Assembly: GCA_965233195.1 (NCBI GenBank)
Contig: CBDDSB010000016.1
Span: forward strand, 155,146 to 219,145
DNA length: 64,000 nt
Direction of reading: 5' to 3'
DNA from: an uncultured bacterium
GTDB taxonomy: Bacteria > Pseudomonadota > Gammaproteobacteria > Burkholderiales > SG8-39
The notes beneath the pieces were generated by a model. The model made no database searches, was not told the origin of the DNA, and saw only the letters and a list, made by a program, of their open reading frames with translations. Each line of letters opens with the position of its first letter. Position 1 is the stretch's first letter. Positions 24,036 to 49,667 of the stretch are shown piece after piece. Both the position numbers and the translations under genes were made by a program.

Positions 24036-25469
24036 TCATAAGGCCTTTCTCTGGTTCACGGGAGGAATCTGCAGCGATTCCCGATATTTCGCAATCGTGC
24101 GGCGCGCGACGACGATGCCCTGCTCGCCGAGGATCTGCGAAATGCGCGCGTCCGACAGCGGCGCCTTGGTGTCCTCGGCGGCGACCAGCTGCTTGATGAG
24201 CGCGCGGATCGCGGTGGAGGAGGCGGCGCCGCCGGCCTCGGTGGCGACGTGGCTGCCGAAAAAATACTTCAGCTCGAAGGTGCCGCGCGGCGTGGCCATG
24301 AACTTCTGCGTGGTGACGCGCGAGATGGTGCTCTCATGCAGGCTCAGGGTCGAGGCGATTTCGCGCAGCACCAGCGGGCGCATCGCCACTTCGCCGTGCT
24401 CCAGGAAATGGCGCTGCCGGTCGACGATCGCCTGCGATACGCGCAGGATGGTATCGAAGCGCTGTTGCACGTTCTTGATCAGCCAGCGCGCCTCCTGCAG
24501 CTGGGACGAGATGCCGGCGCCGCTGCGCGCGGCGGCGGCGAGCTGGGCGTAGAGGCTGTTGATGCGCAGGCGCGGCATGGCGTCGGGATTGAGGCTCGCC
24601 TTCCACACGTTGCGGCTCTTCTTGACGATGACGTCCGGGATCACATAGCGCGCCTCGAGCTTGGCGAATGCCGAACCCGGGCGCGGATTGAGCGCCTGGA
24701 TCAGCCGCTGCGCCGCGCGCAGCGCATCGTCACCGGCGCCGGTGAGGCTTTTCAGGCGCGTGTAGTCGCGCGAGGCGAGCAGCTCGAGGTGCTTGCCGAC
24801 AATCTCGAGGGCGAGCTTGCGGACCCCGTCATCGGGCAGGTTCTTGATCTGCAGCGACAGGCATTCGGCCGGCGTGCGCGCACCGACGCCGGCGGGCTCG
24901 AACTGCTGCAAGTGGCACAGGGCGATCTGCAGCTCTTCCTGCACCGCCCCGGCGTCATCGGGAAGCGGCGCCGGCAGCATTTCCGCGATTTCCTCCAGCG
25001 GCTGCGTCAGGTAGCCGTCCTCGTCGAGCGCGTCGATCAGCAGCTCGACGTACAGCCGGTCGCGGGCACCGAGGTTGGTGAGCGTCAGCTGACTGCGCAG
25101 ATGGTCACGCAGCGTCGGCGTGTCGGCCGTGGCATGGGTACGGTCTCCATCCTCGTCGTCCTCGGGGCCGCGCCAGTTGGCGGCGGCTTCGCTCGGCCAG
25201 TCGGGCTCGCCGCTAGCCGGCGTTTCGGAAGGGGAGGTTTCGGCCGGGGTCGAGACCTGCTCTGACGGCGAGCTGCGCGGCGCCTCGTCGCCGCCCGCGG
25301 CGTGCTCCCCGTCGTGCTCCTCGCGCTCGAGCGCGGGGTTCTCCATCAGGATGCGCTCGATCTCCTGGTTCAGCTCGACCGTCGACAGCTGCAGCAGGCG
25401 AATCGACTGCTGCAGCTGCGGCGTCAGCGTGAGGTGCTGCGAGAGGCGGAATTGAAGCGACGGTTTCAT
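24036..25469 (-). CDS. rpoN: RNA polymerase sigma-54 factor
   Basis: 477 aa. N-terminal LxLxQxLxxxPQLQQSIRLLQLS, an acidic region II, the HTH, and the RpoN box ARRTIAKYRE. Confidence 0.95.
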   Translation of the reverse strand: MKPSLQFRLSQHLTLTPQLQQSIRLLQLSTVELNQEIERILMENPALEREEHDGEHAAGGDEAPRSSPSEQVSTPAETSPSETPASGEPDWPSEAAANWRGPEDDEDGDRTHATADTPTLRDHLRSQLTLTNLGARDRLYVELLIDALDEDGYLTQPLEEIAEMLPAPLPDDAGAVQEELQIALCHLQQFEPAGVGARTPAECLSLQIKNLPDDGVRKLALEIVGKHLELLASRDYTRLKSLTGAGDDALRAAQRLIQALNPRPGSAFAKLEARYVIPDVIVKKSRNVWKASLNPDAMPRLRINSLYAQLAAAARSGAGISSQLQEARWLIKNVQQRFDTILRVSQAIVDRQRHFLEHGEVAMRPLVLREIASTLSLHESTISRVTTQKFMATPRGTFELKYFFGSHVATEAGGAASSTAIRALIKQLVAAEDTKAPLSDARISQILGEQGIVVARRTIAKYRESLQIPPVNQRKAL

Positions 25470-25499
25470 TAAGGGCTGCTGCAGTGTGCGCCGCCAAGA

Positions 25500-26222
25500 C
25501 TACATGCGGAAGTTCTCGCCCAGATATACCCGGCGCACGCTGTCATTGTAAACAATCTCCTCGGGGTGGCCCGAGGCGAGCACCGCGCCCTCGTTGATGA
25601 TGTAGGCGCGGTCGCAGATGCCGAGGGTCTCGCGCACGTTATGGTCCGTTATGAGCACCCCGATGCCGCGCTCCTTGAGGAACCTTATGATGCGCTGGAT
25701 GTCGAGCACCGCGATCGGGTCGACGCCGGCGAACGGCTCGTCGAGCAGGATGAACGCAGGTCGGGTGCCGAGCGCCCGCGCGATCTCCAAGCGCCGCCGC
25801 TCGCCTCCCGATAGTGAGATCGCCGAATGCTTGCGCAGGTGGGCGATGTTCAGGTCCTTGAGCAATTCCGCCAGGCGCGACTCGATTTCGTCGGCCGCCA
25901 GGCCTTGCAGCTCGAGGATCGCCTGCACGTTCTCTTCCACCGTCAGGCGGCGGAACACCGAGTTCTCCTGCGGCAGGTAGGAGATTCCAAGGCGGGCGCG
26001 GCGGTGGATCGGGAGGTGGGTGAGCTCGCGGCTGTCGAGGTGGATGGAGCCGGCGTCGACCGGGATCAGGCCGACGATCATGTAGAAGCACGTGGTCTTG
26101 CCCGCGCCGTTCGGGCCCAGCAGGCCGACCACCTCGCCGCTCGAGACTTCCAAAGACACGTCCTGCACCACGGTGCGCGATTTGTAGCGCTTGCGCAGCC
26201 GCTGGGAGCGCAGCTCGCTCAT
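25500..26222 (-). CDS. lptB: LPS export ABC transporter ATP-binding protein
   Basis: 240 aa. [24 protein letters not shown] and [12 protein letters not shown]. Located between lptA and rpoN. Confidence 0.95.
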
Positions 26223-26731
26223 TTACCTGCAGGAGGTTTTGATTGAATGATGGCTTTGACCCGCCCCGGTTTTTCCCCGCCCTTGCCCGAGCTTACCTGG
26301 TAGAAGTCGGAGCGCTGGTCGACGAAGATGTAGTCGCCGGCGACCTCGTCGCCGCCGCGGTTGACACGTGCCTTGTCGAACAGCTCGATCTTCTGGTTGC
26401 GATCGTCGAGCTCGATGCGCAGCGCTTCGCCCTCGACCCAGATCCCTTCTTTCTCGCCGGCCTTGGCGTCCTGGCGCTGGCGGAAGCGCGCCGGCTTGCC
26501 GGTCGCGGTGGCGAGCTGGAAGCCCTCGGCGTCCTGGCGCACGACCAGCCGGTCGGCGGTGAGCCGGATGGTTCCTTTGGTGACCACGACATCGCCCTCG
26601 AACACGTTCAGGCGGCGCACGTCGTCGGCGCTCATCTTGTTCGCCTCGACTTGCGTCGGCTTGTCGCGGTCGGCCTTCTCCGCAAGCGCCGGGGTCGTCA
26701 AGATGAACAACAGGAAAGCCAGGAACTTCAT
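26219..26731 (-). CDS. lptA: LPS transport periplasmic protein LptA
   Basis: 170 aa. Signal peptide plus OstA-like repeats (F.GDVVVTKG). Synteny lptC-lptA-lptB. Confidence 0.85.
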
Positions 26732-27309
26732 CTCTTCGGCAGCTCGAGGGAGTTGAAGCGGGCCGTGACATCCGCGCGCAGCACCAGCTCGCCCGACTCG
26801 TTGTTGTACTCCATGCCGCGGCCTTGCAGCGAGCGGCTGCCCTCGACGATCTTGACTTCGCGATCGGTGCGCACCAGCGAGCGGTCGCGCAGCACGTGCA
26901 GGAATTCCGTGTTCATGCGCGCTTCCGGGCCGTGCGCCGAGGCTTCGCGCACCAGCTGCACGTCGCCGAAGAGGAAGATCTCGTCGCCGTCGCGCGAGAG
27001 CTGCCCGCGCTCGGCGCGCACGGTGTAGCGCGGCTCGTTGGGCTTCGACTGCACCACGCGCGGGGCGACCAGGTCCGTGGTGTCGTCGTCGGGGTAGTGC
27101 ACCATGCGCGTCGCTGACATCATGGTCTCGGCCGCGCCCTCGCGGTTGTAGGTGGTGGTGGTGAAGTTGGTCACGTAGTAGTCGGGATCGTGGCGCCGCG
27201 CGGACGCCGGCGTTTCGTCCTCACGCACGGTTCGCTCCAGGTAGAAGGTGAGCAACGCGAGCGCGAGCATCATGCCCAGCGGGAACAGGCGGGTAGTGGA
27301 GAATCTCAA
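26728..27309 (-). CDS. lptC: LPS export system protein LptC
   Basis: 193 aa. N-terminal anchor and PDYYV motif. Synteny. Confidence 0.8.
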   Translation of the reverse strand: MRFSTTRLFPLGMMLALALLTFYLERTVREDETPASARRHDPDYYVTNFTTTTYNREGAAETMMSATRMVHYPDDDTTDLVAPRVVQSKPNEPRYTVRAERGQLSRDGDEIFLFGDVQLVREASAHGPEARMNTEFLHVLRDRSLVRTDREVKIVEGSRSLQGRGMEYNNESGELVLRADVTARFNSLELPKR

Positions 27310-27319
27310 CGCCGCAACC

Positions 27320-27847
27320 TCACGTCAGGTATTTTCCCAGCGCGCGATCGAGGGTGCCCTGGGCGCGCATCAGCAGCTCGCACACTTCGCGTACCGCGCC
27401 GCGCCCGGCCGCCGCTTGCGCGACGTAGTGCACGCGCGTGCGCACGGCTTCGGGCGCCTCGCGCGGCGCGCAGGCGAAACCGCAGCGCGTGAGCACCGGC
27501 AGGTCGACGAGCTCGTCGCCCATGTAACCGGTTTGTTGAACCGTGAGGCGTTGCTGGGCGGTCAGCTGCTGGAATATTTCCAATTTGTCCTCAACGCCCT
27601 GGAAGACGGTTTCAATCCCGAGCTCCGCGGCGCGCGTCGCCACCGCGGCGGAGCGCCGGCCGGAAAGCAGCGCGCAACCGACGCCGCTCGCCGCCAGCAT
27701 CTTGATGCCGTGGCCGTCGTGCGCGAAGAAGCGCTTCAGCTCCTCGCCCCGCGGGCCGTAGAGCAGCGTGCCGTCGGTGAGCACCCCGTCGACATCGAAG
27801 ATCATCAAGCGCACGCCGCGTGCGCGCTCTTGAACGCCTTCTTTCAA
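27320..27847 (-). CDS. kdsC: 3-deoxy-D-manno-octulosonate 8-phosphate phosphatase
   Basis: 175 aa. HAD motif I FDVDGVLTDG and YMGDELVDLPV. Confidence 0.88.
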   Translation of the reverse strand: MKEGVQERARGVRLMIFDVDGVLTDGTLLYGPRGEELKRFFAHDGHGIKMLAASGVGCALLSGRRSAAVATRAAELGIETVFQGVEDKLEIFQQLTAQQRLTVQQTGYMGDELVDLPVLTRCGFACAPREAPEAVRTRVHYVAQAAAGRGAVREVCELLMRAQGTLDRALGKYLT

Positions 27848-28845
27848 ATCACCTTCGCACGGAAGAGATCGTGCATGTTCAACGCACCGAGCAGGGCGCC
27901 GCGCTCGTCGACCACCAGCAGCTGGTTGACCTTGTGCTTTTCCATGATCTGCACCGCCTCCACCGCCAGCGCCTCCGGCCGGATGGTGCGCGGCCCGGCG
28001 CTCATCAGCTGGTCGACGCGCGCCCCCTTGATCTCGACGCCCTTCTCCAGCGCGCGGCGCAGATCGCCGTCGGTGAAGATGCCGCGCACTTGGCCGGCTT
28101 CGTCCACCACCGCGGTCATGCCGATGCGCCCGCGCGTCATCTCCGACACCGCCTGCATGGCGCTCGCGCCGCTTTGCACGCGGGCCACGTCCCCGCCGCG
28201 GCGCATCACGTCGGCCACGTGCACCAGCGCCTGGCGCGGCAGCTGCCCGCGGGGATGGCTGCGGGCGAAATCGTCGGCCGAGAAGCCGCGCTTGTCGAGC
28301 AGCGCCACCGCGAGGGCGTCGCCAAGCGCGAGCGCCGCCGTGGTGCTCGCGGTGGGTGCCAGGTTATGCGGGCAGGCCTCCTGCGCCACCGCGGCATCGA
28401 GGTGCACGTCGGCCTCGCGCGCGAGCGCGGATTCAGGCTTGCCGGTGAGCGCGATCAGCTTGGCGCCGCGGCGCTTCACCAGCGGCACGATCTGCAGCAG
28501 CTCCTCGCTCGCGCCCGAGTAGGAGATGGCAATAAACACGTCGCCGGCCTCGACCATGCCGAGGTCGCCGTGGCTCGCCTCGGCGGGGTGCACGAAGTAA
28601 GCCGGCGTGCCGGTGCTCGCGAGCGTAGAGGCGATCTTGCGCGCGATATGGCCCGACTTGCCCATGCCACTCACTACCACGCGCCCCTTGCGTTGATGAA
28701 TCAGCTCCACCGCATCGAGAAATTTCTGATCGATGCGCTCGATCAGCGCGCGCACCGCTTCGGCCTCGATCGCGAGCACGCGGCGCGCGAGCGCGAGCAC
28801 CGAGCTGGAAGCGGTTTTCCCTACGTCAACAGCCGCCCGTATCAT
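27844..28845 (-). CDS. kdsD: arabinose-5-phosphate isomerase (SIS + tandem CBS)
   Basis: VVVSGMGKSGHIARKIASTLASTG SIS motif and C-terminal CBS pair. Start trimmed to the second Met to avoid overlapping the divergent antiporter gene. Confidence 0.9.
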   Translation of the reverse strand: MIRAAVDVGKTASSSVLALARRVLAIEAEAVRALIERIDQKFLDAVELIHQRKGRVVVSGMGKSGHIARKIASTLASTGTPAYFVHPAEASHGDLGMVEAGDVFIAISYSGASEELLQIVPLVKRRGAKLIALTGKPESALAREADVHLDAAVAQEACPHNLAPTASTTAALALGDALAVALLDKRGFSADDFARSHPRGQLPRQALVHVADVMRRGGDVARVQSGASAMQAVSEMTRGRIGMTAVVDEAGQVRGIFTDGDLRRALEKGVEIKGARVDQLMSAGPRTIRPEALAVEAVQIMEKHKVNQLLVVDERGALLGALNMHDLFRAKVI

Positions 28846-28862
28846 GCGGGGGAGTATAGCCC

Positions 28863-30854
28863 ATGGACCATAGCGCAATGAGTGGAGAAGCGGCTCTGCT
28901 GTCGGTGCTGATCCTCCTCGCCTCCAGCGTGCTTGCGGTCGCCGCGTGCCGCAGCCTGCGCGTGCCGCCGACCATCGGCTACCTCGTGACCGGCGTTGCC
29001 CTCGGGCCGCATGCGCTCGGCGTGGTGTCGGAAGGCGAGGAGATCAACCGCCTCGCCGAATTCGGCGTGGTGTTCCTCATGTTCTCCATCGGCCTCGAAT
29101 TCAGCCTGACCAAGCTGAAGACGATGCGCCGCCTCGTGTTCGGGCTCGGCGGCGCGCAGGTCGCCGGCACCATCGCGCTCGCGGTCGGCGGCGCGGCGCT
29201 GCTCGGCGCGCCGTGGCAGGCCGGCCTCGCATTGGGCGGGATCCTCGCCATGTCCTCGACCGCGATCGTGTCGAAGCTGATGGTGGAACGCGGCGAGCTC
29301 GACAGCGCGCACGGGCGCGAGGTCATCGCGGTGCTGCTGTTCCAGGACCTCGCGGTCGTGCCGCTGCTGGTGCTGATCCCGGTGCTGGGCCAGCCGGCGG
29401 ACGCCATCGGCCTCGCGATGGCGGCGGCGCTTGCCAAGGCGGCCGCGGCGCTGACGCTGGTCATCCTCGGCGGGCCGCGGCCGATGCGCGCCTGGCTGCG
29501 GGTGGTGGCGCGGCGCCGCTCGAACGAGCTGTTCGTGCTCAACGTCATCCTGATCACGCTGGTGGCAGCGTTCATTACTGCGGCGGCCGGGCTGTCGCTG
29601 GTACTCGGCGCGTTCCTCGCCGGGATGCTGATCTCGGAAACCGAGTACCGGTTTCAAGTCGAGCAGGACATCAAGCCGTTCCGCGACGTGCTGCTCGGGC
29701 TGTTCTTCATCACCGTGGGCATGATGCTCGACCCGCGCCTGGTCGCGGCGCAGTTCTGGCTGGTGTTCGCTTTCCTCGCGGTCCTGCTGCTCGGCAAGTT
29801 CGCGCTGATCGCGGCGCTCTCGCGTGGGTTCGGCGCCAACACCGGCAGCGCGCTGCGCGTCGGCCTCGCCCTCGCGCAAGGCGGCGAATTCGGCTTCGTG
29901 CTCCTGACGCTCGCCGGCATCGCCGGTATCGTGCCCGCGCAGTTCCTGCAGCCGCTGCTCGCCGCCATGATCCTGTCGATGCTCGGCACGCCGTTCATCA
30001 TCGCCGCGAGCGACAAGATCGTGCTGCGCCTGTCACGCGCGGAATGGATGCAGCGCTCCCTCGAGCTGCATCGCGTCGCGGTGCAATCGCTCGAGGCCGA
30101 GCGCCACGTCATCATCGTCGGCTACGGGCGCAACGGCCAGCGCCTCGCGCGCCTGCTCGACGCCGAGGGCGTGCGCTATATCGCGCTCGATCTGGACCCG
30201 GAGCGCGTGCGCGAGGCCGTCGCCGGCGGCGACACCGTGGTGTTTGCCGACGGCCTGCGCCCCGAGGCGCTCTCCGCCGCCGGCATCTCGCGCGCGGCGG
30301 CCGTGGTGCTCACGTTCGCGGATGCCGCGGCCGCGAAGCGCGTGCTCGCGCATCTCCACGAGCTCAATCCCGCCGTGCCGGTCATCGTGCGCGCGCGCGA
30401 CGAAGCCGACATCGAGCCGCTCACCGCCGCCGGCGCTTCCGAGGTGGTGCCGGAGGCATTCGAGTCCGGGCTGATGCTCGCTTCGCACACGCTGGTGTGG
30501 GTCGGCGTGCCGCTCAGCCGGGTGATGCGGCGCGTGAGCCAGGTGCGCGGTGAGCGTTACGGACTGCTGCGCGGCCTGTTCCAGGGACGCGACCGCGACG
30601 AAGGCGAAGGCGACTCCGCGGCGGCACGCCTGCACGCGGTCACGCTCGAACCCGGCGCCAGGGCGCTGGGCCGCCGGCTCGATGCTCTCGGCCTGCAGGC
30701 GATGGGCGTGGAAGTCAGGGCGGTGCGTCGGCGCGGCGCGAAGCCGAAGCTGCAGCCCGCCGAGGCTGGCGAGCTGCAGGCGGGCGACGTGGTGGTGCTG
30801 CTAGGGCCGCCGGAGGCGCTCGCCGAGGCGGAGGAGCGCCTCGCGGCCCGCTGA
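28863..30854 (+). CDS. CPA2 family monovalent cation:proton antiporter with RCK (TrkA-N/TrkA-C) domains (KefB/YbaL-like)
   Basis: 663 aa. Na_H_Exchanger-like polytopic N-terminal half, a Rossmann GYGRNGQRLARLL, and a C-terminal TrkA-C-like domain. The start could be Met at 28878. Confidence 0.88.
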   Translation: MDHSAMSGEAALLSVLILLASSVLAVAACRSLRVPPTIGYLVTGVALGPHALGVVSEGEEINRLAEFGVVFLMFSIGLEFSLTKLKTMRRLVFGLGGAQVAGTIALAVGGAALLGAPWQAGLALGGILAMSSTAIVSKLMVERGELDSAHGREVIAVLLFQDLAVVPLLVLIPVLGQPADAIGLAMAAALAKAAAALTLVILGGPRPMRAWLRVVARRRSNELFVLNVILITLVAAFITAAAGLSLVLGAFLAGMLISETEYRFQVEQDIKPFRDVLLGLFFITVGMMLDPRLVAAQFWLVFAFLAVLLLGKFALIAALSRGFGANTGSALRVGLALAQGGEFGFVLLTLAGIAGIVPAQFLQPLLAAMILSMLGTPFIIAASDKIVLRLSRAEWMQRSLELHRVAVQSLEAERHVIIVGYGRNGQRLARLLDAEGVRYIALDLDPERVREAVAGGDTVVFADGLRPEALSAAGISRAAAVVLTFADAAAAKRVLAHLHELNPAVPVIVRARDEADIEPLTAAGASEVVPEAFESGLMLASHTLVWVGVPLSRVMRRVSQVRGERYGLLRGLFQGRDRDEGEGDSAAARLHAVTLEPGARALGRRLDALGLQAMGVEVRAVRRRGAKPKLQPAEAGELQAGDVVVLLGPPEALAEAEERLAAR

Positions 30855-30869
30855 AGAACTAGAGGTCTG

Positions 30870-31547
30870 TTACAGCGCGCGGCACAGCACGTAGATGTTG
30901 GTGCTGGTTTCAGCGTAGGCCGGGGTCGCGACCTGGCCGACGCCGATCGCCGGGTTCGGCGCCGTCTGGAGCAGCGCCCGCACGGTGCCGAGGTTGGAAG
31001 CGCCGTCGTCCATCTGCGTGTCGACCGCGATCGCGATCTTGTCCGGCAGGTTGGCCGAACACATGATGAGGCCGACAAAACCGTTGCCGCCCGCGGCGTT
31101 GAGCAGGGTCGGACCGGCGGCAGCGTCGCCGGTTTGGACGCCGATCATTCCGGTGACCGCGTTAAACGGCTGCTGCGTGCCGGTACCCGACACGAAGCCC
31201 GCGCGACGCAAATGATCCCACCAGCGGCGCGATTCACCCGCGGCGCCCGCGGCGTCCGCGGCGAGATTATAGGCACCGCCCACCACGCCGTCGCCGGTGC
31301 CGGCGGTCGCGGCCGGCGCTACTGCCCAGCGCGTCGCGGCATTCGGATCGTCGCCCGGAATCGCGCGATAGCGGTCCTGGTAGCCGTGGTACGCGGCCGA
31401 GACGCCCGAGAAGTCGGCGATCACGTTCTTGATCTTCGCCTGGGTGATCATTTCCTGGCCTTTCAGGATGCCGCCGAGCAGCAGCCCGATGATGACCAGC
31501 ACGATCGCGATCTCGACCAGCGTGAAGCCCGTTTGCCTTGCTTTCAT
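30870..31547 (-). CDS. prepilin-type N-terminal cleavage/methylation domain protein (type IV pilin / pseudopilin)
   Basis: 225 aa. Class III signal MKARQTG|FTLVEIAIVLVIIGLLLGGIL with Glu5 after the cleavage Gly. Two Cys near the C-terminus (MCSANL...YVLCRAL) fit a D-region disulfide. Strong RBS AGAGGGAG. Confidence 0.85.
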   Translation of the reverse strand: MKARQTGFTLVEIAIVLVIIGLLLGGILKGQEMITQAKIKNVIADFSGVSAAYHGYQDRYRAIPGDDPNAATRWAVAPAATAGTGDGVVGGAYNLAADAAGAAGESRRWWDHLRRAGFVSGTGTQQPFNAVTGMIGVQTGDAAAGPTLLNAAGGNGFVGLIMCSANLPDKIAIAVDTQMDDGASNLGTVRALLQTAPNPAIGVGQVATPAYAETSTNIYVLCRAL

Positions 31548-31588
31548 GCGCGTTCTCCCTCTTGGGGCGATCCAAGTAACCCAGCTTT

Positions 31589-31606
31589 ACGCAACCCCCG
31601 TGCCAA
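31589..31606 (-). promoter_or_regulatory. sigma-54 (-24/-12) promoter upstream of the detached pilin gene
   Basis: The minus strand reads TTGGCACGGGGGTTGCGT, i.e. TGGCAC-N5-TTGC with exact spacing. The -12 GC lies 44 nt upstream of the pilin ATG (31547). Confidence 0.65.
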
Positions 31607-31694
31607 GATTGTCATTGTTCTAAAACAGGGGCTTAACTCACATCTCATCGCGGCAGAACGTCGAAATGCCGACAGGTGCGTTGGGGCGCCGACA

Positions 31695-32366
31695 CTAGCG
31701 TCGCGTCCGCGACTCGAGCTCGTGCAGCCGCTGTTTCAGGAAATCGAGCTCCGCCGGATCGGCGATCCTGCCGCTCGCGAGCAGGCCGCCGAGCATGATG
31801 CGAGCCGCCTCGAGCTCGTTCATGTCCTCGAGGATGAAGATCTCCATCTGCCTTGCCCATAGCGGCACGTCGGCCGCGGTGGTGTGGCGATCGATGGCCG
31901 CGGCGTAGCGTCGAGCCAGGGGCAGGTCCTTCAGCCGGTGCTTGGCGAGCAGGGCGGCGTGCGCGAGCCACGGCCAGCGCCGGTTCGGGTCGAGCAGGAA
32001 TTGTTCGTGGATGAGCTCGAGCATCATGCTCGCGCGCGCTGGGTCCGGGTGCTCGGCATAAACGCGCGCCGCTGCGAACAAGGGATATTGCCCACGCGGA
32101 TCGAGCTCGATCAGGGCGCGTAGCCAGGCGGCAAGGCGCGCGTAATCCAGCGCCTGCAGGTCGAATGCCTGTAGATACAGCATGCCCAGCCGCGCCGCGG
32201 CTTGCGTTTCGCCGAAGGTCGCGAGGCGCAGCGCGCGCGCGGAGGGCGCCGGCGGCAGCTCGTCGTCGGCGAGGCGCGGCCGGCCGAGTGCTGCGTGCCA
32301 GGCCGCCTGCGCGGCGAGGCTCGCGGCGAGCAGGACGAGGATCCAGGCCGGGACGGCGCGCGTCAT
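31695..32366 (-). CDS. hypothetical signal-anchored helical-repeat protein
   Basis: Internal Met (MTRAVPAWILVLLAASLAAQA) of ORF 31695-33065, 223 aa. ATGA overlap with the upstream permease-like gene. Amphipathic helical, TPR-like composition. No family recognised. Confidence 0.5.
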   Translation of the reverse strand: MTRAVPAWILVLLAASLAAQAAWHAALGRPRLADDELPPAPSARALRLATFGETQAAARLGMLYLQAFDLQALDYARLAAWLRALIELDPRGQYPLFAAARVYAEHPDPARASMMLELIHEQFLLDPNRRWPWLAHAALLAKHRLKDLPLARRYAAAIDRHTTAADVPLWARQMEIFILEDMNELEAARIMLGGLLASGRIADPAELDFLKQRLHELESRTRR

Positions 32367-33124
32367 ACGTTGCGGCGATGGAAGTCGAATAGCCCCGCAG
32401 CGGTCAGCAGGACGATGTAGACGGCCAGCGCGGCCAGCGCCGCGGTGTATTCGCCGAGCGGCGGCGCGTCGTAGACCAGCCACTCGGTGCGCGTCGCGGC
32501 GTCCACGCGGGGCAGCACGAAGGCGATGGCGTCGACCGCGCCGCGCGCGAGCCAACCGGGCCACGTGTCTGCCGCGAGCGGCGTGCCGGCGAGCACCTGG
32601 ATTGCGGGCATGGCGCGGGCGAGCAGGTAGAGGCCCGCCGTGGCGGCGATGGCGGCGACCACCGTGGACAGCGTCATGGCGAAAAAAAGCGCGGCTGCGG
32701 CGATCAGTGCAGCCTCGATGGCGAGCGAGATGCCCCAGAGCGCGACCTGCAGCGGCGGCGCCCAGGGAAGCAACGCCGCAGAGAAGATCGCGGCTAAAGC
32801 AGTGCCGCAGCCGACGAAGCCCGCGAGGCGTCCGAGATAGTGCGTGGTGCGCGAAAGCGGCAGCGAGAGCATGAGCTCGAGGCCCTTGTCCTGGATCTCG
32901 CGCAGCGTGCCGGCGGTGACTTGCGCGGCGACGAGGAAGACGGCGCACGCGCGCAGCACCCCGGCCAGCACTGCGAGTTGCAGCGCCGCGGTTTCGGTGA
33001 GCGCGACCTGCGAAAGAAAAACCGCGGCAGCGAGGCCGATCGCCAGAGCGCCCGCGGCGAGCCATGGCAATCCGCCGCGGCAGGCTTCGAGCAGGACCGA
33101 GCGGGCGAGCGTGGCGGCGGGCAT
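32363..33124 (-). CDS. ABC-2 type (NosY/GldF-like) permease-like polytopic membrane protein
   Basis: 253 aa with about 6 hydrophobic helices. The loop REIQDKGLELMLSLPLSRTTHYLGRLAGF resembles the E-x-GTLE-LL-x-P-x-SR motif of ABC-2 permeases. Confidence 0.5.
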   Translation of the reverse strand: MPAATLARSVLLEACRGGLPWLAAGALAIGLAAAVFLSQVALTETAALQLAVLAGVLRACAVFLVAAQVTAGTLREIQDKGLELMLSLPLSRTTHYLGRLAGFVGCGTALAAIFSAALLPWAPPLQVALWGISLAIEAALIAAAALFFAMTLSTVVAAIAATAGLYLLARAMPAIQVLAGTPLAADTWPGWLARGAVDAIAFVLPRVDAATRTEWLVYDAPPLGEYTAALAALAVYIVLLTAAGLFDFHRRNV

Positions 33125-33135
33125 GCGGAGTTGTG

Positions 33136-33148
33136 GACTAGACTAGTC
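33136..33148. promoter_or_regulatory. 13-bp palindrome GACTAG-A-CTAGTC in the divergent kinase/permease intergenic region
   Basis: Odd-length perfect palindrome, locally AT-richer than its surroundings. It sits in the short gap between 33124 (- gene start) and the histidine kinase start. Confidence 0.3.
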
Positions 33149-33156
33149 GCGGGGGA

Positions 33157-34890
33157 TTGACTGTGCAACTGACCGCGGCCCGGGCGCCGATTCTTACGCG
33201 CATCGCCAACATGGCCTGGGCCTTCAGCCAGCGCTACTGGCGCGTGGTCCTGGTGGCGATGCTCGCGCTGCTGCACATCGCGGTGTTCCGTGGTGTGGCC
33301 GATCCGTGGGCGCGCGCGTTGCTGCTGGCGCATCTCGGCCTGCTCCTCCTGTGGCAACCGTTCCTGCGCGGCGAGCAGCGCGTCTCGCCGGTCCAGGGCG
33401 TGATCCTCGCGCTGGTCGCGAGCGCAGTGATGCTGCGGCTCGACTGGTGGTTCCTCGCCTTCTGGGTGGTGGTGCTCGCCGGCCTGGTCGGCGGCAAGGT
33501 GTACCAGCAGCATGCACGCTGGCAGCGGCGCTGCTACCTCGTGGTGCTCGCCTACCTGCTCGCGCTGCTCGCCATCGCCATCCTGCCGGAGATCGCGCCC
33601 CGGCGCGAAATCGAGGCCGACGTGCGCGCGTATGCCGAGTACGTGCTGCCCTTCGCGTTCGTGCTGATCGCGCTGTTGCCTTCGGAGCCCGATTCGGCCG
33701 ACGCGCCGCACATCATCGACTTTTTCTACAGCGTGTTCGTGATGCTGGTGATCATGGTCGTGATCCTGGGCAGCTTCACCTTCATGAGCGTGACGCGCAC
33801 GCCGTATCTCGAGGCGCTGACCGCCACCATCTTCGTCACCGCCGGCGCCATGCTGCTCGTCGCCTTGGCATGGAATCCGCGCAGCGGCGGCGGCATCGAC
33901 GTGTTTTTTTCCCGCTACCTGTTCTCGATCGGCCTGCCGGTGGAGAAGTGGATGCAGGTGCTCGCCGAGCTGCTGCAGGTGGAAGCCCGGCCCGAGCGCT
34001 TCCTGAGCGAGGCAGTCGCGGCGCTGCTGCGCGTGCCGTCGGTGGCCGGGGTGCGCTGGCGTGCCGGGGAGAGCGCGGACGAGCAGGGGATTCGCACGCC
34101 GCATGGGGTTGACTACGCTTCGAGCGAGCTCGCGCTCACCATCTTTTCGCGCTATCGCCTCGGACCGACACTGCGCTGGCACCTGCACCTGCTGGGTCAG
34201 CTGCTGGGCGAGTTCTACGTCGCCAAGCTGCGCGAGGAAAAGCTGCGCCAGGCGAGCTATCTGCAGGCGGTGCACGAGACCGGCGCGCGCATGACGCACG
34301 ACATCAAGAACCTGCTGCAGTCGCTCTCGGTGCTGACCTCGGTGGCGGCGCGCGACGACGGCCGGGATTCGGCGCAGCTTCAGGCGCTGCTGCGCCGTCA
34401 GCTGCCGCTCATCGAGCGCCGCCTGTCCGAGACGCTGGAGAAGCTGCAGCGCCCGCAGGAAGGCCGCGAGCACTACGTGGCCGCGCGCCCCTGGTGGGAG
34501 TCGCTCGCGCGCCAGTACCGCGGCGAGGGGGTGGAATTCGAGCCGGCCACGCCGCCGCCGGGCGTGCGGCTGCCGCGCTCACTGTTCGACAGCGTGGCCG
34601 ACAACCTGATCCGCAACGCACTATCGAAGCGCGCTGCCGATGCGGATGTGCGCGTACGCGTAGCCCTTGAATGCGGCGAGCGCGTGGCGCTGCGTGTTTG
34701 CGACAGCGGCGCCGCGATGCCGGCGGACATCGCCGCCAGCGTGCTGCGCGCGCCGGTGAGCTCGCGCAGCGGCCTGGGCATCGGCCTGTACCAGGCGGCG
34801 CGCCAGGCCGAGGCCAGCGGCTATCGCCTGGTGCTGGAGTCCAACCGCGACGGAAAAGTCTGCTTCGCGCTGAGCGGAAAGCCGGCTTAG
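33157..34890 (+). CDS. polytopic sensor histidine kinase (PrsK-like architecture)
   Basis: 577 aa from TTG; an ATG alternative is at 33211. The first ~240 aa are hydrophobic with 6-7 helices. H-box ARMTHDIKNLLQSLSVL, N-box DNLIRNALSK, G-boxes CDSGAAM and GLGIGLY. Confidence 0.8.
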   Translation: MTVQLTAARAPILTRIANMAWAFSQRYWRVVLVAMLALLHIAVFRGVADPWARALLLAHLGLLLLWQPFLRGEQRVSPVQGVILALVASAVMLRLDWWFLAFWVVVLAGLVGGKVYQQHARWQRRCYLVVLAYLLALLAIAILPEIAPRREIEADVRAYAEYVLPFAFVLIALLPSEPDSADAPHIIDFFYSVFVMLVIMVVILGSFTFMSVTRTPYLEALTATIFVTAGAMLLVALAWNPRSGGGIDVFFSRYLFSIGLPVEKWMQVLAELLQVEARPERFLSEAVAALLRVPSVAGVRWRAGESADEQGIRTPHGVDYASSELALTIFSRYRLGPTLRWHLHLLGQLLGEFYVAKLREEKLRQASYLQAVHETGARMTHDIKNLLQSLSVLTSVAARDDGRDSAQLQALLRRQLPLIERRLSETLEKLQRPQEGREHYVAARPWWESLARQYRGEGVEFEPATPPPGVRLPRSLFDSVADNLIRNALSKRAADADVRVRVALECGERVALRVCDSGAAMPADIAASVLRAPVSSRSGLGIGLYQAARQAEASGYRLVLESNRDGKVCFALSGKPA

Positions 34891-35714
34891 GGCAGCACGC
34901 CGGCAGAGATCATGCGGCCGTAGAACTGCCCCACCGGGATCCACAAGAGCAGGTCGTCATACTCGCCGCCGACCGCACCCTGCGGGCGCATGTCGTGCCA
35001 GACGAAGGCGGCATTGTTGTTCAGCGGCGCTGGCAGGCGGTGCTTGTTGTTGATCTGCTCGTCGATGTTGCCCGCGGGCATGGTCGCCAGGTTCTTGCCC
35101 TGCGACCACACGACTGCGGCGACGACCGTCTGGTTGGTCACGACGTTCGCAGCCGGGCCGCAGGTCGGCGTCGCGGCGTTGAACCCTGCCCCGAGGGCCG
35201 AGTTGCATAGCAGCAGATCGCTCGGCATCGTGGTAATGCCGTTGGTTTTGAGGTTCGCCGTATGCGTGAAGTGGGGCACCGTGCCGGCATTGATTGTCTG
35301 CGCCACGGCGTAGCGGATGCGATGGCCCCAGGCGTCGAGCGCGTAACCGCTGCCGTCCGTCGGCTGGAACCCGAGGGTGCGGCCGGGAAGGTACCCGGTG
35401 TAGCCGTCGCTGCAGGCGCCGCCGCCAGCGGGCATGGCGCCGCCGCCAGCCGGCATCTCGTCGCCGCCGTCGCCCGCGGCATTGCAGGCCGGGAAGTTCG
35501 AGCAGCGCGCCGGGCACGGCAACCGGCCGTTGACGATGGCGAAGCTGAGCAGCCCCTCCTTCGCCTGCTCCAAGCGCCGCAGCGTCTCATCGCGGCCGCG
35601 CGCCTCGCTTTGCGCCGACAGCGTGTACATCAGGCTGCTGATCAGGATCGCGACGATGGTGAGCACCACCGCCAACTCGGTGAGGGTGAAGCCCCGATCG
35701 CGTCGCGTCGGCAT
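34887..35714 (-). CDS. prepilin-type minor pilin/pseudopilin, Cys-rich
   Basis: 275 aa. MPTRRDRG|FTLTELAVVLTIVAILISSL class III signal. NGRLPCPA and GYLPGRTLGF...DAWGHRIRYAV motifs. Internal MPAGGGA duplication. Confidence 0.8.
   Translation of the reverse strand: MPTRRDRGFTLTELAVVLTIVAILISSLMYTLSAQSEARGRDETLRRLEQAKEGLLSFAIVNGRLPCPARCSNFPACNAAGDGGDEMPAGGGAMPAGGGACSDGYTGYLPGRTLGFQPTDGSGYALDAWGHRIRYAVAQTINAGTVPHFTHTANLKTNGITTMPSDLLLCNSALGAGFNAATPTCGPAANVVTNQTVVAAVVWSQGKNLATMPAGNIDEQINNKHRLPAPLNNNAAFVWHDMRPQGAVGGEYDDLLLWIPVGQFYGRMISAGVLP
35415..35456. repeat. 21-bp tandem duplication (2 copies, 1 mismatch) inside the 275-aa pilin gene
   Basis: ggcgccgccgccagcgggcat / ggcgccgccgccagccggcat. On the coding strand this encodes MPAGGGA-MPAGGGA. 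Confidence 0.8.
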
Positions 35715-37453
35715 CAGTTCGCGTCAATCACCGCGATGCGGTCGTTGAAGCCCCGGTTGATCATCTGGGTCGGGTCGCGGCTGGCGAAGGAGGTGTTCAG
35801 GTCGCTGTTGCTGCCTTCCAGCCAATCGGTCAGGGTGCCGTTGGGACGCGCGGTTCCGTTCAGGCTGCGGCCGGAGATCACCAGGAGGCCGCGCTGCGTA
35901 TTGCCCGGGTTCATGAACGCGACCGAAAGGCACGTGCCCCCGGTGGTGCAGTTGCGCGGCGCCGCGCCCGCCGGCGAGACGCTCTGCGCCACCGCGTAGT
36001 AGGAAACCTGGTGCCAGTTGTTGCGGAAGAACCAGCTGAAAGTCGCGTCGGTGGAATCGAGGATCGGATGGTCGGCGAGGAAGGCGATCGGGACCGAGAG
36101 GGTTTCGAGCTTGCAGACTTGAAGGAGGCCGAGCACGCCGCACAACAGGTCGCCGAGCAAGCCGCCGAAGCCCACTCCGCCGCCGACGGCGGCCTCGGCG
36201 TTCAAGGTGATGGTGGCCGAACCGCTGGCGTTGAGCACGCCGCCAGAGGTGCGCGGCGCGGCGTTCACGTTGGTCATCGCCGCTGCGTTGTTGAGCTGCC
36301 GCAGCGCCATGCCGACGTTGGCGGCCGTGGCGGTGAGCGTGAACGGCATATTGCCGGCGGGGCAGATGATGAAGCAGCGGCGGTAGAAGTCGCAATCCAC
36401 CGTCGTGGCGGTGGTGGTGCAGGTTGCCGAGTTGATCCCCGCCCCGGCGAGTGAAGCCGCGCTCCAGGCCACGAAGGTGGGGTCGCAGCGCGGGCCGGCG
36501 GTGCCGGGATCACAGGCAATGCCGGAGCCGGGTATCGTCTCGGAGAAGCTGGCGGGCAGCAGGCCGCCAGACGTCGCCGTCGCCGCGCTGCCTTGGAACT
36601 TGTCGAATGGGGCCAGCGTGGGATTGCCGAACGGCGCGGCGAATGGCAGCGCCGGGTTCGCCGGCCAGGCACCGGTCGAGTAGACGGTGCGCAGCTGCGG
36701 CGCGAACTGGCGCTCGAAGCGCGAGGCCACGGCAGCTTCGATTCCAGGCAAGATCTCGGCGCCACTGATCGACAGCACCTGATCGTTGAACGACTCCGCG
36801 GGGCCGGCGCTCTGGAACGCTGTGTTTGCCGGCGTGGTCGCGTTCTCGCACTCGAGGTAGTCGCGCAGGTCGATGGCTGGCGAGGGCGTGGTGCGGCTCT
36901 GCACCCGCGCGTTACAGCCGGCGGCGGCCGCGACCTGCAGCGGCCGTCCCGGCGCGATGATCAGCGCGACGATGTCGCCGGTGGCGTCGAGCGTGAGCTG
37001 ACCTGTCGAGTTCGAATTGATGACGGTGTTGGTCGCTGCGTTGGGCTTCGCCCAGGCCGGCGATACCACGTACCAGAGCGGCTCGCCGGCGATGTCGCGC
37101 CATTTGTCGAGGCCGAGAGTCCGCCAGGGCAGCCGGCCGACGGCGGGCAGCGTGCAATTGCCCGCGGCGATGCCTTCGTTCGCGGTGCCGATGTTGCCGG
37201 CCGCCTCGGGACACGGCAGCCGTCCCGGGTCGTTCTCGGTGGTCATCGCGGTGCGGTGCGCGACGTAGCCGATGAGCGCGCTTTTCGCTTCTTGCAGGAT
37301 GCGCGCGTTGTGCGTCCGGTCCAGCGCCGTGCGGTTGATCGGCGTGCTGATCAGGGTCACGCCCCACCAGGCGGCGCCGAGGATCAGCACCGCGAGCATC
37401 GCCATCAACGCTGCGCCGCTTTGCTGCGCGCGCAGCTTGACTTCGCGATTCAT
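35714..37453 (-). CDS. large Cys-rich GspK-like minor pseudopilin candidate
   Basis: 579 aa. The N-terminus RAQQSG|AALMAMLAVLILGAAWW resembles the GspK-type leader (no Glu5). It shares GRLPCPE and GRLPWRTLGL...PLWYVV motifs with the adjacent 275-aa pilin. About 18 Cys. Confidence 0.5.
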   Translation of the reverse strand: MNREVKLRAQQSGAALMAMLAVLILGAAWWGVTLISTPINRTALDRTHNARILQEAKSALIGYVAHRTAMTTENDPGRLPCPEAAGNIGTANEGIAAGNCTLPAVGRLPWRTLGLDKWRDIAGEPLWYVVSPAWAKPNAATNTVINSNSTGQLTLDATGDIVALIIAPGRPLQVAAAAGCNARVQSRTTPSPAIDLRDYLECENATTPANTAFQSAGPAESFNDQVLSISGAEILPGIEAAVASRFERQFAPQLRTVYSTGAWPANPALPFAAPFGNPTLAPFDKFQGSAATATSGGLLPASFSETIPGSGIACDPGTAGPRCDPTFVAWSAASLAGAGINSATCTTTATTVDCDFYRRCFIICPAGNMPFTLTATAANVGMALRQLNNAAAMTNVNAAPRTSGGVLNASGSATITLNAEAAVGGGVGFGGLLGDLLCGVLGLLQVCKLETLSVPIAFLADHPILDSTDATFSWFFRNNWHQVSYYAVAQSVSPAGAAPRNCTTGGTCLSVAFMNPGNTQRGLLVISGRSLNGTARPNGTLTDWLEGSNSDLNTSFASRDPTQMINRGFNDRIAVIDAN

Positions 37454-37875
37454 TTGCGCGCCGGGGCCGCCTGCACGCGACCGCCCTCGCCAAGAACGTC
37501 GCGCACCTGGCCGGTGCTGCGGTCGAGCACTTCGCCGGGGCGCAGCTCGACGCGCTGGCCGCCTTCGCCGGCGGGCACCGGCACCCGCCCGCCGCGGCGC
37601 TCGGGGTCGATCACCGGCGCGTCGGCCGTGCCTTCGAGCATGGCGTCGCCGTTGACGAATACCGTCGAGCGCCCGCCCGAGCGCTTCACGTAGCCGTCGA
37701 GGCGGGTGGTCGGCGACACAGTGGTCACCGCCGGCCGGTCGGGCACGCGCGCCTTGCGCCGCGCGTCGAGCGCCGCGCGCTGCTCGGGCGTGAAAAACAG
37801 GCGGCCGAGTTCCTGGGAACTCGCATCAGCAACGATCCCCGCAAACAAGATTGTGGATAGAAGGGCGCGCTTCAT
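37450..37875 (-). CDS. small secreted protein, PilP/MshK/GspC-HR-like candidate
   Basis: Internal Met (MKRALLSTILFAGIVADASSQ signal peptide) of ORF 37450-37986, 141 aa. Beta-rich C-terminal part (STVFVNGDAML...VELRPGEVLD). ATGA overlaps on both sides. Confidence 0.4.
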   Translation of the reverse strand: MKRALLSTILFAGIVADASSQELGRLFFTPEQRAALDARRKARVPDRPAVTTVSPTTRLDGYVKRSGGRSTVFVNGDAMLEGTADAPVIDPERRGGRVPVPAGEGGQRVELRPGEVLDRSTGQVRDVLGEGGRVQAAPARK

Positions 37876-38480
37876 CCCTTCGCCGCCCGGTCGATGATGG
37901 TGATGAGGTCGAGGTCGCACTCGCCGCGCAGGCGCGGTGAAATCTGGATGCCGGCCGGCGGCTGGGCGATGCGGGTCAGCGAGCACTGGCGCACCGCGTA
38001 GTAGGCGTTGCCGGAAGCGCGCAGGTCGGCGAGGAAGCGCAGCAGGTCCTCCTCGTGCAGGAGCGCGAGCTGCACGCGCATCGCGCTGGCGAAGAACTCG
38101 ACGTTACCCGGTTTGCCCGGCGCCGAGACCAGCAGCCGCTGGCGGTCGACGCGATACGAAAGGTCGAGCAGCTCGCGCTGCTTGCGGATGCGGGTGATGG
38201 CGTCGGCCCACTCGAGGCGTCGCTCCTCGCCGAGGATGTTGAGCTGCTGGAGGCGCTTGTAGACGTCAAGCTTCTCGATCACCTCGCGCTCCTCCTCGGA
38301 AATGCGCGCGAGGCGCTCGGTGGCCTGCTGGCGCTCGGCCTGCGCCGCCTGCGCCTGCCGCTGCGCTGCGCCGAGCGTGGCGTCGGCGCCCCCGATCAGG
38401 CCGGCGCCGGCCGCGACCAGCAGCGCGGCGAAGAGCGCGGGCAGCGCGAGCTTGCGCAGCTCGTCGGGGGTGAAGGTCAC
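37872..38480 (-). CDS. bitopic assembly protein, GspM/PilO/MshJ-like
   Basis: 202 aa. One N-terminal TM (LALPALFAALLVAAGAGLIGG), a coiled-coil Q/E/R-rich segment, and a C-terminal globular domain. Its position after the GspL-like gene fits. Confidence 0.5.
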   Translation of the reverse strand: MTFTPDELRKLALPALFAALLVAAGAGLIGGADATLGAAQRQAQAAQAERQQATERLARISEEEREVIEKLDVYKRLQQLNILGEERRLEWADAITRIRKQRELLDLSYRVDRQRLLVSAPGKPGNVEFFASAMRVQLALLHEEDLLRFLADLRASGNAYYAVRQCSLTRIAQPPAGIQISPRLRGECDLDLITIIDRAAKG

Positions 38481-41229: not shown

Positions 41230-41231
41230 GA

Positions 41232-42941: not shown

Positions 42942-43009
42942 TGGAGGATCATAAGGGGGCTGTTCATGAAGCCACTGTCAACAATTCCCATGCACGTTGT
43001 CAGCTTCCT

Positions 43010-44293: not shown

Positions 44294-44296
44294 GGC

Positions 44297-46051: not shown

Positions 46052-46142
46052 TCCGAGGAACGCCCTCCCCTAGTAAGGATACCACGATCATTACCTGAGG
46101 AACCCGTCGTAAACGCCTGTCGCGCAGGCATTTTCCGCTTGT

Positions 46143-47555: not shown

Positions 47556-47557
47556 GC

Positions 47558-48940: not shown

Positions 48941-49649
48941 GAACGCATCTCATGAACGCGGTTTCGAGGCTGGCCTCGCCGTAGCGCGCGCGCAGCGCGG
49001 CCGGGGTTCCCCGCCAGCGCACCCGGCCGCGGTCGAGCACCGCGATGGACGTGCACAGCTCGTCGACGTCGGCGAGCACGTGCGAGGTGAAGAACAGCGT
49101 GCGGCCCTCGGCGGCAAGGCGGCGCAGCACCGATTTCACCGCGACGCGCGCCGCGGGGTCAAGGCCGCTCATCGGTTCGTCAAGCAGGTACAGATCGCGC
49201 GGCAGCAGGAAGCAGGCGGCGAGGCCGAGCTTCTGCGTCATGCCTTTCGACAGCGTCCGCACCGGCCGCTCGAGCGCCCCGCGCTCCAGCTCGAGCTCAT
49301 CGAACAGCGCCACGGCCCGGGATGCGTCATAACGCGCGCCGGCGAGCTCCAACATCATGGAGAGGAATTCGCGTCCGCGCAGGTAGTGGGGCGGGTTGAA
49401 GCGCTCCGGCAGATAAGCAAGGCGACGCCTTGCCGCGGGGTCCTGCGCGGCGATACCGAAAATCTCGATCGCACCGGCGTCGCGCGCAATGAGATCGAGC
49501 ACGCACTTGATCAGCGTGGTCTTGCCGGCGCCGTTGGCGCCCACCAATCCGAATGCCTCGCCGGCCGCGACGTCGATATCGACGCGCGCCAGCGCTTCGT
49601 CTCGGTTGTAACGCTTGACGAGCGCCGCAATTCTTAACGCTTCCCCCAT
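48912..49649 (-). CDS. ABC transporter ATP-binding protein (ABC-2/DrrA-like subfamily)
   Basis: Internal Met (MGEALRIAALVKRY) of ORF 48912-50429, 245 aa. GANGAGKTT, LSKGMTQKLGLA and LYLLDEPMSGLDP. The 3' end overlaps the response-regulator start by 29 nt. Confidence 0.85.
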   Translation of the reverse strand: MGEALRIAALVKRYNRDEALARVDIDVAAGEAFGLVGANGAGKTTLIKCVLDLIARDAGAIEIFGIAAQDPAARRRLAYLPERFNPPHYLRGREFLSMMLELAGARYDASRAVALFDELELERGALERPVRTLSKGMTQKLGLAACFLLPRDLYLLDEPMSGLDPAARVAVKSVLRRLAAEGRTLFFTSHVLADVDELCTSIAVLDRGRVRWRGTPAALRARYGEASLETAFMRCVRDNEAAIQV

Positions 49650-49667
49650 GCTTGATAATATTACGCC

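Follow-up and report, generated by a model that had tools for sequence, protein, structure and literature searches.

Control of a major pilin gene by a two-component system acting through sigma-54 is textbook biology. We describe here a predicted case from a 64-kb stretch of DNA (hereafter the window) of an uncultured bacterium of the Burkholderiales (contig CBDDSB010000016.1), in which a 147-bp intergenic gap separates a prepilin gene from the upstream gene of a TPR-like protein. The initial annotation of this DNA had proposed that the gap holds a sigma-54 promoter with an upstream activator site, through which a kinase and a response regulator gate the production of the filament subunit. To judge from a comparison with related loci, this is very probably the function of the gap; the anatomy of the enhancer has been corrected and the pilin has been placed in a conserved gene cluster.

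Among the described systems, the control of pilE in commensal Neisseria by RpoN, IHF and Npa/Nps has been shown experimentally, with pilE as the only gene controlled (PMC6528607). Our locus resembles it in that both are found in betaproteobacteria, a GG-N10-GC element lies just upstream of the major pilin gene, an NtrC-type regulator acts (here by prediction) at an upstream activator sequence, an IHF site (here an IHF-like sequence) lies between the two, and a sensor kinase serves as the partner (PMC6528607). Likewise, the pilin gene alone responds there and not the machinery genes, and the placement of the composite site suggests the same here. The two differ in the type of machinery, which is MSHA-like here and not type IVa, in the double TGTCG-N6-CGAC(A/G) dyad of our locus, which is known from sequence alone, and in the arrangement of the kinase and regulator genes, which are 13 kb apart here whereas they form one operon in Neisseria. 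The PilS/PilR-RpoN-pilA systems of Pseudomonas aeruginosa, Lysobacter and Xanthomonas share with our locus a multi-pass kinase, an activator composed of REC, AAA+ and helix-turn-helix (HTH) domains and a sigma-54 promoter of the major pilin gene (PMC8035640, PMC7170775), and the enhancer has the outline TGT...ACA in both. However, the reported PilR consensus is TGT-N11-ACA (PMC8035640), whereas the sites described here have the form TGT-N10-ACA and are present in two copies at 20-bp phasing. The machinery is also of another type, the catalytic region of our kinase is closest to that of PrsK, and the adjacent kinase-regulator gene pair of PilS/PilR-type regulation is not found at this cluster.

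In the PEP-CTERM-associated PrsK/PrsR/PrsT system, a sigma-54 promoter stands in front of single-gene units, with a further motif upstream of it (Haft et al. 2006; PMC1569441). Common to that system and ours are a conserved motif some 50-60 nucleotides (nt) before the sigma-54 promoter, a transmembrane kinase, an NtrC-like regulator and TPR proteins (PMC1569441), and the NCBIfam matches of our kinase, regulator, TPR protein and ExeA-like ATPase include PEP-CTERM-associated families. Membership in the system was nevertheless rejected despite this shared logic, as all scores fall far below the equivalog cutoffs, for instance those of the kinase (71.9 against 300), the regulator (316.3 against 502.6) and the TPR protein (67 against 312.2). 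In addition, the target here is a pilin without a PEP-CTERM tail, and the enhancer consists of dyads and not of a 17-nt motif ending in TTTACA. As for the filament itself, the cluster resembles the Vibrio MSHA system (mshI-Q) in having an MshL-like secretin, an MshE-type ATPase with an N-terminal domain that binds cyclic di-GMP (c-di-GMP), an ExeA/MshM-like ATPase and an MshN-like TPR protein. In Vibrio, MshE is a c-di-GMP receptor and as such under c-di-GMP control (PMC4624772, PMC4624765). Unlike the Vibrio arrangement, our locus has its pilin gene set off as the last of the cluster, with an enhancer-dependent promoter to itself.

The pilin gene and the elements that would drive its transcription lie as follows, in coordinates of the window:

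31605-31590, minus strand: sigma-54 -24/-12 element TGGCACGGGGGTTGCG, with GG at 31604-31603 and GC at 31592-31591
31577-31581 (about 31579), minus strand: predicted transcription start, placed by established sigma-54 geometry ~12 nt beyond the C of the -12 element (31591)
31561-31555, minus strand: Shine-Dalgarno sequence GAGGGAG, 7 nt before the ATG
30870-31547, minus strand: prepilin gene (225 amino acids) with a class III signal peptide, matching Pfam N_methyl and TIGR02532

The initial annotation had read TGGCAC-N5-TTGC with -24/-12 spacing from the minus strand at 31606-31589, and this is indeed the sequence found there (TTGGCACGGGGGTTGCGT); the distance of 44 nt that it had given to the pilin gene is also correct when counted from the -12 C at 31591 to the A of the ATG at 31547. 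The element is placed inside the 147-bp gap in the orientation correct for the pilin, agrees with TGGCAC-N5-TTGCW at 15 of 16 positions (the final W being a G), and is the best-scoring sigma-54-like site of the whole window, with a score of 14.5 out of 15. The exact TGGCAC-N5-TTGC occurs only once in the 64 kb, against 0.19 occurrences expected. We judge the promoter to be real because it is conserved across genomes, and not because of the motif count in the window. Two further sigma-54-like matches returned by the scan of the window were dismissed as false positives, namely TGGAACGCGTCTTGCG (826-811, minus strand), which lies inside coding sequence upstream of gmk, and GGGCGCGCGCGTTGCT (33308-33323, plus strand), which lies inside the kinase gene and recurs in relatives as conserved coding sequence.

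Conservation was assessed on two sets of loci. The first comes from a scan of one genome per species with the pilin, which returned 80 loci, nearly all from uncultured Burkholderiales/Betaproteobacteria; the window together with the 76 loci whose start codon could be placed gives 77 pilin-upstream regions. A strong site was defined as a GG-N10-GC element in the form of TGGCAC, TGGCAT or TGGTAC followed by N5 and TTGC. Such sites occur across the loci at a frequency of 4.9e-4 per nucleotide, so that about 0.05 would be expected per region, yet an equivalent site is present in 68 of the 77 regions. The distance from its GC to the ATG is 30-60 nt in these regions and mostly 39-43 nt. The nine regions without a site belong to second copies of tandem pilin pairs or to paralogues outside the cluster. 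The second, independent set consists of metagenome contigs centred on the gene of the platform protein, and the sigma-54 site is found in all 15 loci that extend to the pilin upstream region. A comparison of the regions upstream of related pilins, of the kind that the initial annotation had suggested as a check, speaks strongly for both its promoter and its upstream activator site. On this comparative evidence, the motif in front of the pilin is a real sigma-54 promoter, its conservation across genomes being far beyond chance.

Upstream of the promoter, the gap contains two dyads, the outer of which almost touches the preceding gene:

31674-31659, minus strand: proximal dyad TGTCGgcatttCGACG, perfect and the only exact TGTCG-N6-CGACR in the window
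31694-31679, minus strand: distal dyad TGTCGgcgcccCAACG, with one mismatch and exactly 20 bp upstream of the proximal dyad
31695-32366, minus strand: upstream gene of a TPR-like protein that has a signal peptide; the stop codon abuts the distal dyad; syntenic in 67 of the 80 genome loci

The initial annotation had pointed to two direct copies of GCCGACA. Both copies are present, as TGTCGGC on the minus strand at 31694-31688 and 31674-31668, but they are the left halves of dyads and not direct repeats. The direct-repeat model of the heptamer is not significant in the window, and the dyad model took its place once the regions had been anchored on the -24 element, which revealed an enhancer unit of two 16-bp dyads of the form TGTCG-N6-CGAC(A/G). 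In the window, the proximal dyad is centred about 61 bp before the T of TGGCAC, or about -85 from the predicted start; the distal dyad begins 1 nt past the TAG stop of the TPR-like gene, has its centre near -105, and is perfect in the closest relative of the window (L001). A third dyad-like sequence, AGTCGCGGACGCGACG (31714-31699, minus strand), which lies exactly 20 bp above the distal dyad in the end of the upstream coding region, is conserved in one of 68 loci and is probably a chance occurrence.

For the enhancer, and for the spacer discussed below, we used the 68 loci that bear the site (the window and 67 genome loci), aligned on the -24 element. Both dyads are present with at most two mismatches in 44 of them; the spacing between the two is exactly 20 bp in 41 of these 44 pairs, and in 42 the proximal dyad is centred 57-61 bp before the T of TGGCAC, whereas shuffled sequences give 0.065 pairs. 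Taken singly, the proximal dyad (at most two mismatches) is found at the conserved position in 60 of the 68 loci and the distal dyad (at most three mismatches) in 58, against none of the 68 at control offsets in either case. The primary sequence of the half-sites is conserved, with an information content of 1.2-2.0 bits per position, and the non-coding DNA around promoter, double enhancer and bend region varies freely, whereas these three keep their position and sequence in the 68 regions and in the 15 metagenome loci. The dyads agree with the usual description of an enhancer for an NtrC-family activator, as two or more conserved dyad-symmetric sites, phased on one helix face, about 70-150 bp upstream of a promoter. 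To judge by its coordinates, the enhancer, near -85 and -105, lies where those of such activators are usually found, and the 20-bp phasing implies that both dyads are on one face of the helix. The composite of enhancer and promoter was not found elsewhere in the cluster or its flanks, either in the related loci or in the window, and is present only upstream of the first pilin gene.

The spacer between enhancer and promoter is AT-rich (44% GC against 64% in the flanking coding DNA) and holds one further candidate element:

31623-31635, plus strand: IHF-like site AAACAGGGGCTTA, with two mismatches to WATCAANNNNTTR, at about -50 from the predicted start

IHF-like sites with at most two mismatches to WATCAANNNNTTR are found at a first fixed offset, in the same orientation, in 20 of the 68 loci, where the background amounts to 0.6 per position, and a second fixed offset accounts for 12 more, so that the two offsets together cover 32 loci. 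The site of the window sits at the commoner of the two. When at most one mismatch is allowed, 17 of the 68 loci have such a site, compared with 2.9 in shuffles. Support for the site is moderate, and IHF is likely to be used at the promoter of the window, as far as can be read from the site and its placement. In seven other loci (L003, L009, L019, L026, L051, L069 and L079), we note a direct repeat of TTYTGA or T-tracts in a 10-bp phase, at about -47 and -37 from TGGCAC, which occupies the place that the IHF-like site has in other loci and is absent from the window. This repeat may provide intrinsic curvature or a further binding site. Phased T-tracts and IHF-like sites alike point to a bend as a required feature of these promoters.

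The proteins that could act on these sites are encoded in the same window:

47558-48940, minus strand: NtrC-family enhancer-binding response regulator with a REC domain, a sigma-54 AAA+ domain (GAFTGA at residue 219) and a Fis-type HTH (HTH_8)
33157-34890, plus strand: multi-pass histidine kinase with about 7-8 hydrophobic segments, an NtrB-like H-box (THDIKN) and HATPase_c
34887-49649, minus strand: machinery operon, supported by Pfam and NCBIfam matches, its order conserved in the metagenome loci
48912-49649, minus strand: ABC ATPase, the first gene of the machinery operon
24036-25469, minus strand: rpoN (sigma-54), NF004598 with 704.9 bits against a cutoff of 621, in its canonical place after lptB

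That both rpoN and a sigma-54 activator are encoded in the window, as had been stated initially, is confirmed by NF004598 for the former and by Pfam domains and the GAFTGA motif for the latter. The regulator had been placed at the head of the machinery operon; its nature as an enhancer-binding response regulator is supported by the Pfam domains, but it is the second gene, after the ABC ATPase. The proximity of rpoN had been taken as a sign of a regulatory circuit. We do not follow this, since rpoN has its canonical position after lptB and the pilus cluster sits between mlaFE and kdsD-lptCAB-rpoN, so that the proximity reflects the ancestral synteny of the mla/kdsD-lptCAB-rpoN neighbourhood and is no evidence of a circuit.

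The regulator is present in all 15 metagenome loci that extend far enough, its orthologues being 67-84% identical overall, and it is the sole enhancer-binding protein of the cluster. Its HTH (GNVSQAAKLLGvNRTTLYSRM) is almost invariant among the orthologues, which is in line with the invariant half-site; in the five loci that hold both, HTH and half-site are alike invariant, so that there is no covariation to read. Because of this synteny, its standing as the only enhancer-binding protein of the cluster and the invariance of its HTH, we infer that the cluster regulator binds the dyads. The kinase gene, which converges on the machinery operon and whose product resembles PrsK in its catalytic part, is syntenic in 58 of the 80 genome loci and in every metagenome locus that is long enough. 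Across the sequences compared, the promoter and enhancer elements are conserved in sequence, spacing and position, and regulator, kinase and pilin always co-occur. The kinase and regulator of the cluster thus probably control the pilin promoter, if conserved gene content is a guide to function. The start of the machinery operon (49649-49720) and the gap that separates the kinase gene from the ABC-2-like gene were both searched for a sigma-54 promoter or dyads, and neither holds one. As the machinery operon is without such a promoter, the proposed switch would gate subunit supply rather than the machine.

Based on these similarities, we consider it likely that the 147-bp gap is a complete enhancer-dependent promoter, with the cluster regulator as its most likely activator and the kinase as the partner of the latter. 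Sigma-54 RNA polymerase would bind TGGCAC-N5-TTGC (31605-31591) as a closed complex, and two dimers of an NtrC-family activator on the tandem dyads (about -85 and -105) would nucleate the active oligomer. The AT-rich spacer would bend, either through IHF at about -50 or by intrinsic curvature, and thereby allow the activator to touch sigma-54. ATP hydrolysis would then open the promoter. The resulting pilin mRNA would be monocistronic, start at about 31579 and have a ~32-nt leader and a strong ribosome-binding site. The activator in this scheme would most likely be the regulator at 47558-48940, phosphorylated by the kinase at 33157-34890. A signal would in this way switch the supply of the major subunit of an MSHA-like filament, with the machinery operon transcribed from a different promoter. 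In this scheme, we infer the transcription start, the use of IHF, the dyad-binding protein and the signal.

Several observations weigh against this reading and are best considered along with the alternatives that they favour. The lineage is known only from metagenome-assembled genomes, and in the window itself the distal dyad (one mismatch) and the IHF-like site (two mismatches) are imperfect. The heptamer TGTCGGC is common in the window, where 23 copies are found against 17.7 expected. Similarly, at least one exact TGGCAC-N5-TTGC turns up in 16 of 100 shuffles of the window, so that the single match is, taken alone, weakly above the chance level of 0.19, and one-mismatch versions are not enriched (3 found in the window against 5.0 expected). 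It could thus be supposed that the sigma-54 match is a product of chance in GC-rich DNA, but this is refuted by the conservation of the site, which keeps a fixed distance to the start codon in 68 of the 77 pilin-upstream regions of the first set and in all 15 of the second, and we give the idea practically no credence. More weight, if still little enough to call the alternative unlikely, is due to the view that promoter and enhancer are real but that a different sigma-54 activator, such as a PilR-like protein, occupies the dyads, and that the cluster regulator controls something else. As only 64 kb of the genome are in view, the dyads could be the target of enhancer-binding proteins whose genes lie elsewhere; the genes of kinase and regulator are separated by 13 kb and on opposite strands, unlike those of most cognate pairs. 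The Fis-type HTH motif is common among NtrC relatives, which makes its invariance weak evidence, and the TGT-N10-ACA outline of the dyads resembles the sites of other activators, such as the TGT-N11-ACA consensus of P. aeruginosa PilR (PMC8035640). On the other hand, the regulator is fixed in the cluster in all 15 loci as the only enhancer-binding protein there, and the cluster holds no other composite sigma-54 site on which it could act.

A scan of 30700-33400 found neither a sigma-70-like promoter nor a terminator. The lack of a terminator after the upstream TPR-like gene in this region also counts against the reading given above, as read-through could add to pilin expression. The pilin might even be expressed mainly by read-through from the ABC-2-like and TPR-like genes, or from an unrecognised sigma-70 promoter, with the sigma-54 element being auxiliary or vestigial. 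The paralogous pilins L029, L037, L002 and L008, which lack a sigma-54 site and must use other promoters, are compatible with this, but they are located outside the cluster. A vestigial element would, moreover, not be expected to keep its sequence, its 20-bp phasing and its distance of 57-61 bp across pilins that are 55-78% identical, and the region scanned offers no sigma-70-like promoter; we therefore regard expression of this kind as very unlikely. It is less probable still, and indeed hardly credible, that the dyads act in RNA, where they would fold into hairpins at the end of the upstream message and serve as a stabiliser, a processing site or a weak terminator. Just past the stop codon, a hairpin with a stem of 5 bp and a loop of 6 nt could indeed form from each dyad, and some loci alter both halves symmetrically (e.g. 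TGACG...CGTCA). However, it is the primary sequence of the half-sites that is conserved and not just their complementarity, there is no T-run, and a scan of 30700-31900 against Rfam gave only a sub-threshold chance match. The 20-bp phasing and the fixed distance from the -24 element, for their part, make sense only as promoter geometry at the level of DNA. The enhancer-dependent promoter under the control of the cluster regulator is thus the reading that we retain.

This reading can be carried further, though only tentatively. The PrsK-like kinase and the NtrC/PrsR-like regulator may form a dedicated and previously undescribed two-component system. Within the cluster, this system would have a single target, the gene for the major subunit of a distinct MSHA-like filament, and filaments of this type would be widespread among uncultured Burkholderiales of soil and groundwater. 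The system would act through a new double-dyad enhancer (two copies of TGTCG-N6-CGACR at 20-bp phasing), and the kinase may sense the pool of pilin in the membrane, as PilS does. If this is true, it would amount to a new regulon and a new filament subtype and go beyond another PilR-pilA pair. Otherwise no concept is changed, the design being already well known for pilin genes and found here in an unstudied group of soil bacteria. The practical value lies in a precise and testable regulatory map, comprising the promoter, two activator sites, a bend site and candidates for the regulator and the kinase. The pilus-like system that it describes is very common among uncultured Burkholderiales of soil, none of which has been studied. 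With the enhancer consensus, complete genomes could be searched for further members of the regulon, and reporters could be built in surrogate hosts.

The pilin itself has the N-terminus MKARQTG followed by FTLVEIAIVLVIIGLLLGG, with cleavage between G and FTLVE. Its leader is short and basic, residues -1, +1 and +5 are G, F and E, and the N-terminal helix is hydrophobic. It scores 27.9 bits against Pfam N_methyl (cutoff 21.2) and 22.1 against TIGR02532 (cutoff 16.3), and its N-terminal helix matches those of solved type IV pilins; the AlphaFold2 model of the protein is unusable, with a mean pLDDT (predicted local distance difference test) of 41. Residues 7-41 are almost all invariant, and the cysteines C163 and C222 are conserved. 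Public metagenomes contain more than 7,900 homologous protein clusters. The C-terminus (...NIYVLCRAL) has neither a PEP motif nor a transmembrane segment with a basic tail. Identity across the loci is 55-94% for this pilin, against 25-53% for the minor pilins, with the closest relatives excepted. The 225-residue pilin is probably the major subunit, given its own strong promoter, its near-invariant N-terminal helix, its better conservation than other pilin-like genes and the occurrence of tandem paralogues in some genomes, all of which are indirect grounds. Tandem paralogues are seen in L010, L018, L034, L061, L063, L067, L068, L011 and L024, and in the two pairs that were checked (L011 and L024) the enhancer and the sigma-54 promoter lie upstream of the first copy only. 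Paralogous pilins outside the cluster (L029, L037, L002, L008, L038 and L054) lack the sigma-54 site; L029 and L037 have instead an AT-rich upstream region that looks like sigma-70.

The strong ribosome-binding site claimed for the prepilin gene is indeed present, in the form of GAGGGAG 7 nt before the ATG, and the transcription unit is monocistronic, since the downstream kefB converges on the pilin gene. The predicted leaders are ~30 nt long and often contain a small hairpin beside or including the Shine-Dalgarno sequence; in the window, CTTGG (31576-31572) pairs with CCAAG (31565-31561). As a structural element of the 5' untranslated region this hairpin was rejected, because the folding energies are no better than those of shuffled sequences (mean z -0.46).

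The pilin gene had been described as detached from the machinery. This does not hold, as the pilin is the last gene of a conserved MSHA-like cluster of ~19 kb, of which the intervening kinase, ABC-2-like and TPR-like genes are fixed members. In most genome loci the conserved order is minor pilin genes, convergent histidine kinase, ABC-2-like gene, TPR-like periplasmic protein, enhancer and promoter, pilin, convergent kefB and kdsD, and the loci centred on the platform protein contain the full cluster, with the machinery operon followed by the kinase and pilin module. Two of its genes remain to be listed:

32363-33124, minus strand: ABC-2-like membrane protein with a weak match to Pfam ABC2_membrane_3 and five hydrophobic segments, syntenic in 62 of the 80 loci
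41232-42941, minus strand: MshE-type assembly ATPase, with the c-di-GMP motif of NF053729 (57.2 bits against 38) and Pfam MshEN (53.6 against 23.1)

The machinery operon encodes, in order, the ABC ATPase, the enhancer-binding response regulator, an MshM/ExeA-like ATPase, an MshL-like secretin, a TPR protein, the MshE-like ATPase with its c-di-GMP-binding domain, a GspF/PilC-like platform protein, three proteins of unknown function and two minor pilin-like proteins. The MshL secretin match is just below the cutoff (245.8 against 250.2), the ExeA-like AAA_22 domain and TPR repeats are present, and equivalents of MshI, MshJ and MshK gave no family matches. Given the domains of the MshE-type ATPase, assembly of the filament is probably also under the control of c-di-GMP, independently of the transcriptional switch on the pilin. 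In L084-L086, the machinery operon contains extra minor pilin-like genes between the homologues of p178 and p579, including a distant relative (about 30% identical) of the major pilin.

The TPR-like protein encoded at 31695-32366 found no match in family searches, and its gene is overlapped by the ABC-2-like gene in an ATGA. The cluster seems to contain a divided ABC transporter, whose ATPase (48912-49649) and ABC-2-like protein (32363-33124) are encoded 16 kb apart, with both ends conserved in related loci. The pilus cluster together with kefB (within 24036-51280) is flanked by mlaF/mlaE (49668-51280, plus strand) on one side and by kdsD-kdsC-lptCAB-rpoN (24036-28878, minus strand) on the other. 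This is the classical divergent mlaF/kdsD junction, and most of the related loci have the same arrangement on the side of kefB and kdsD.

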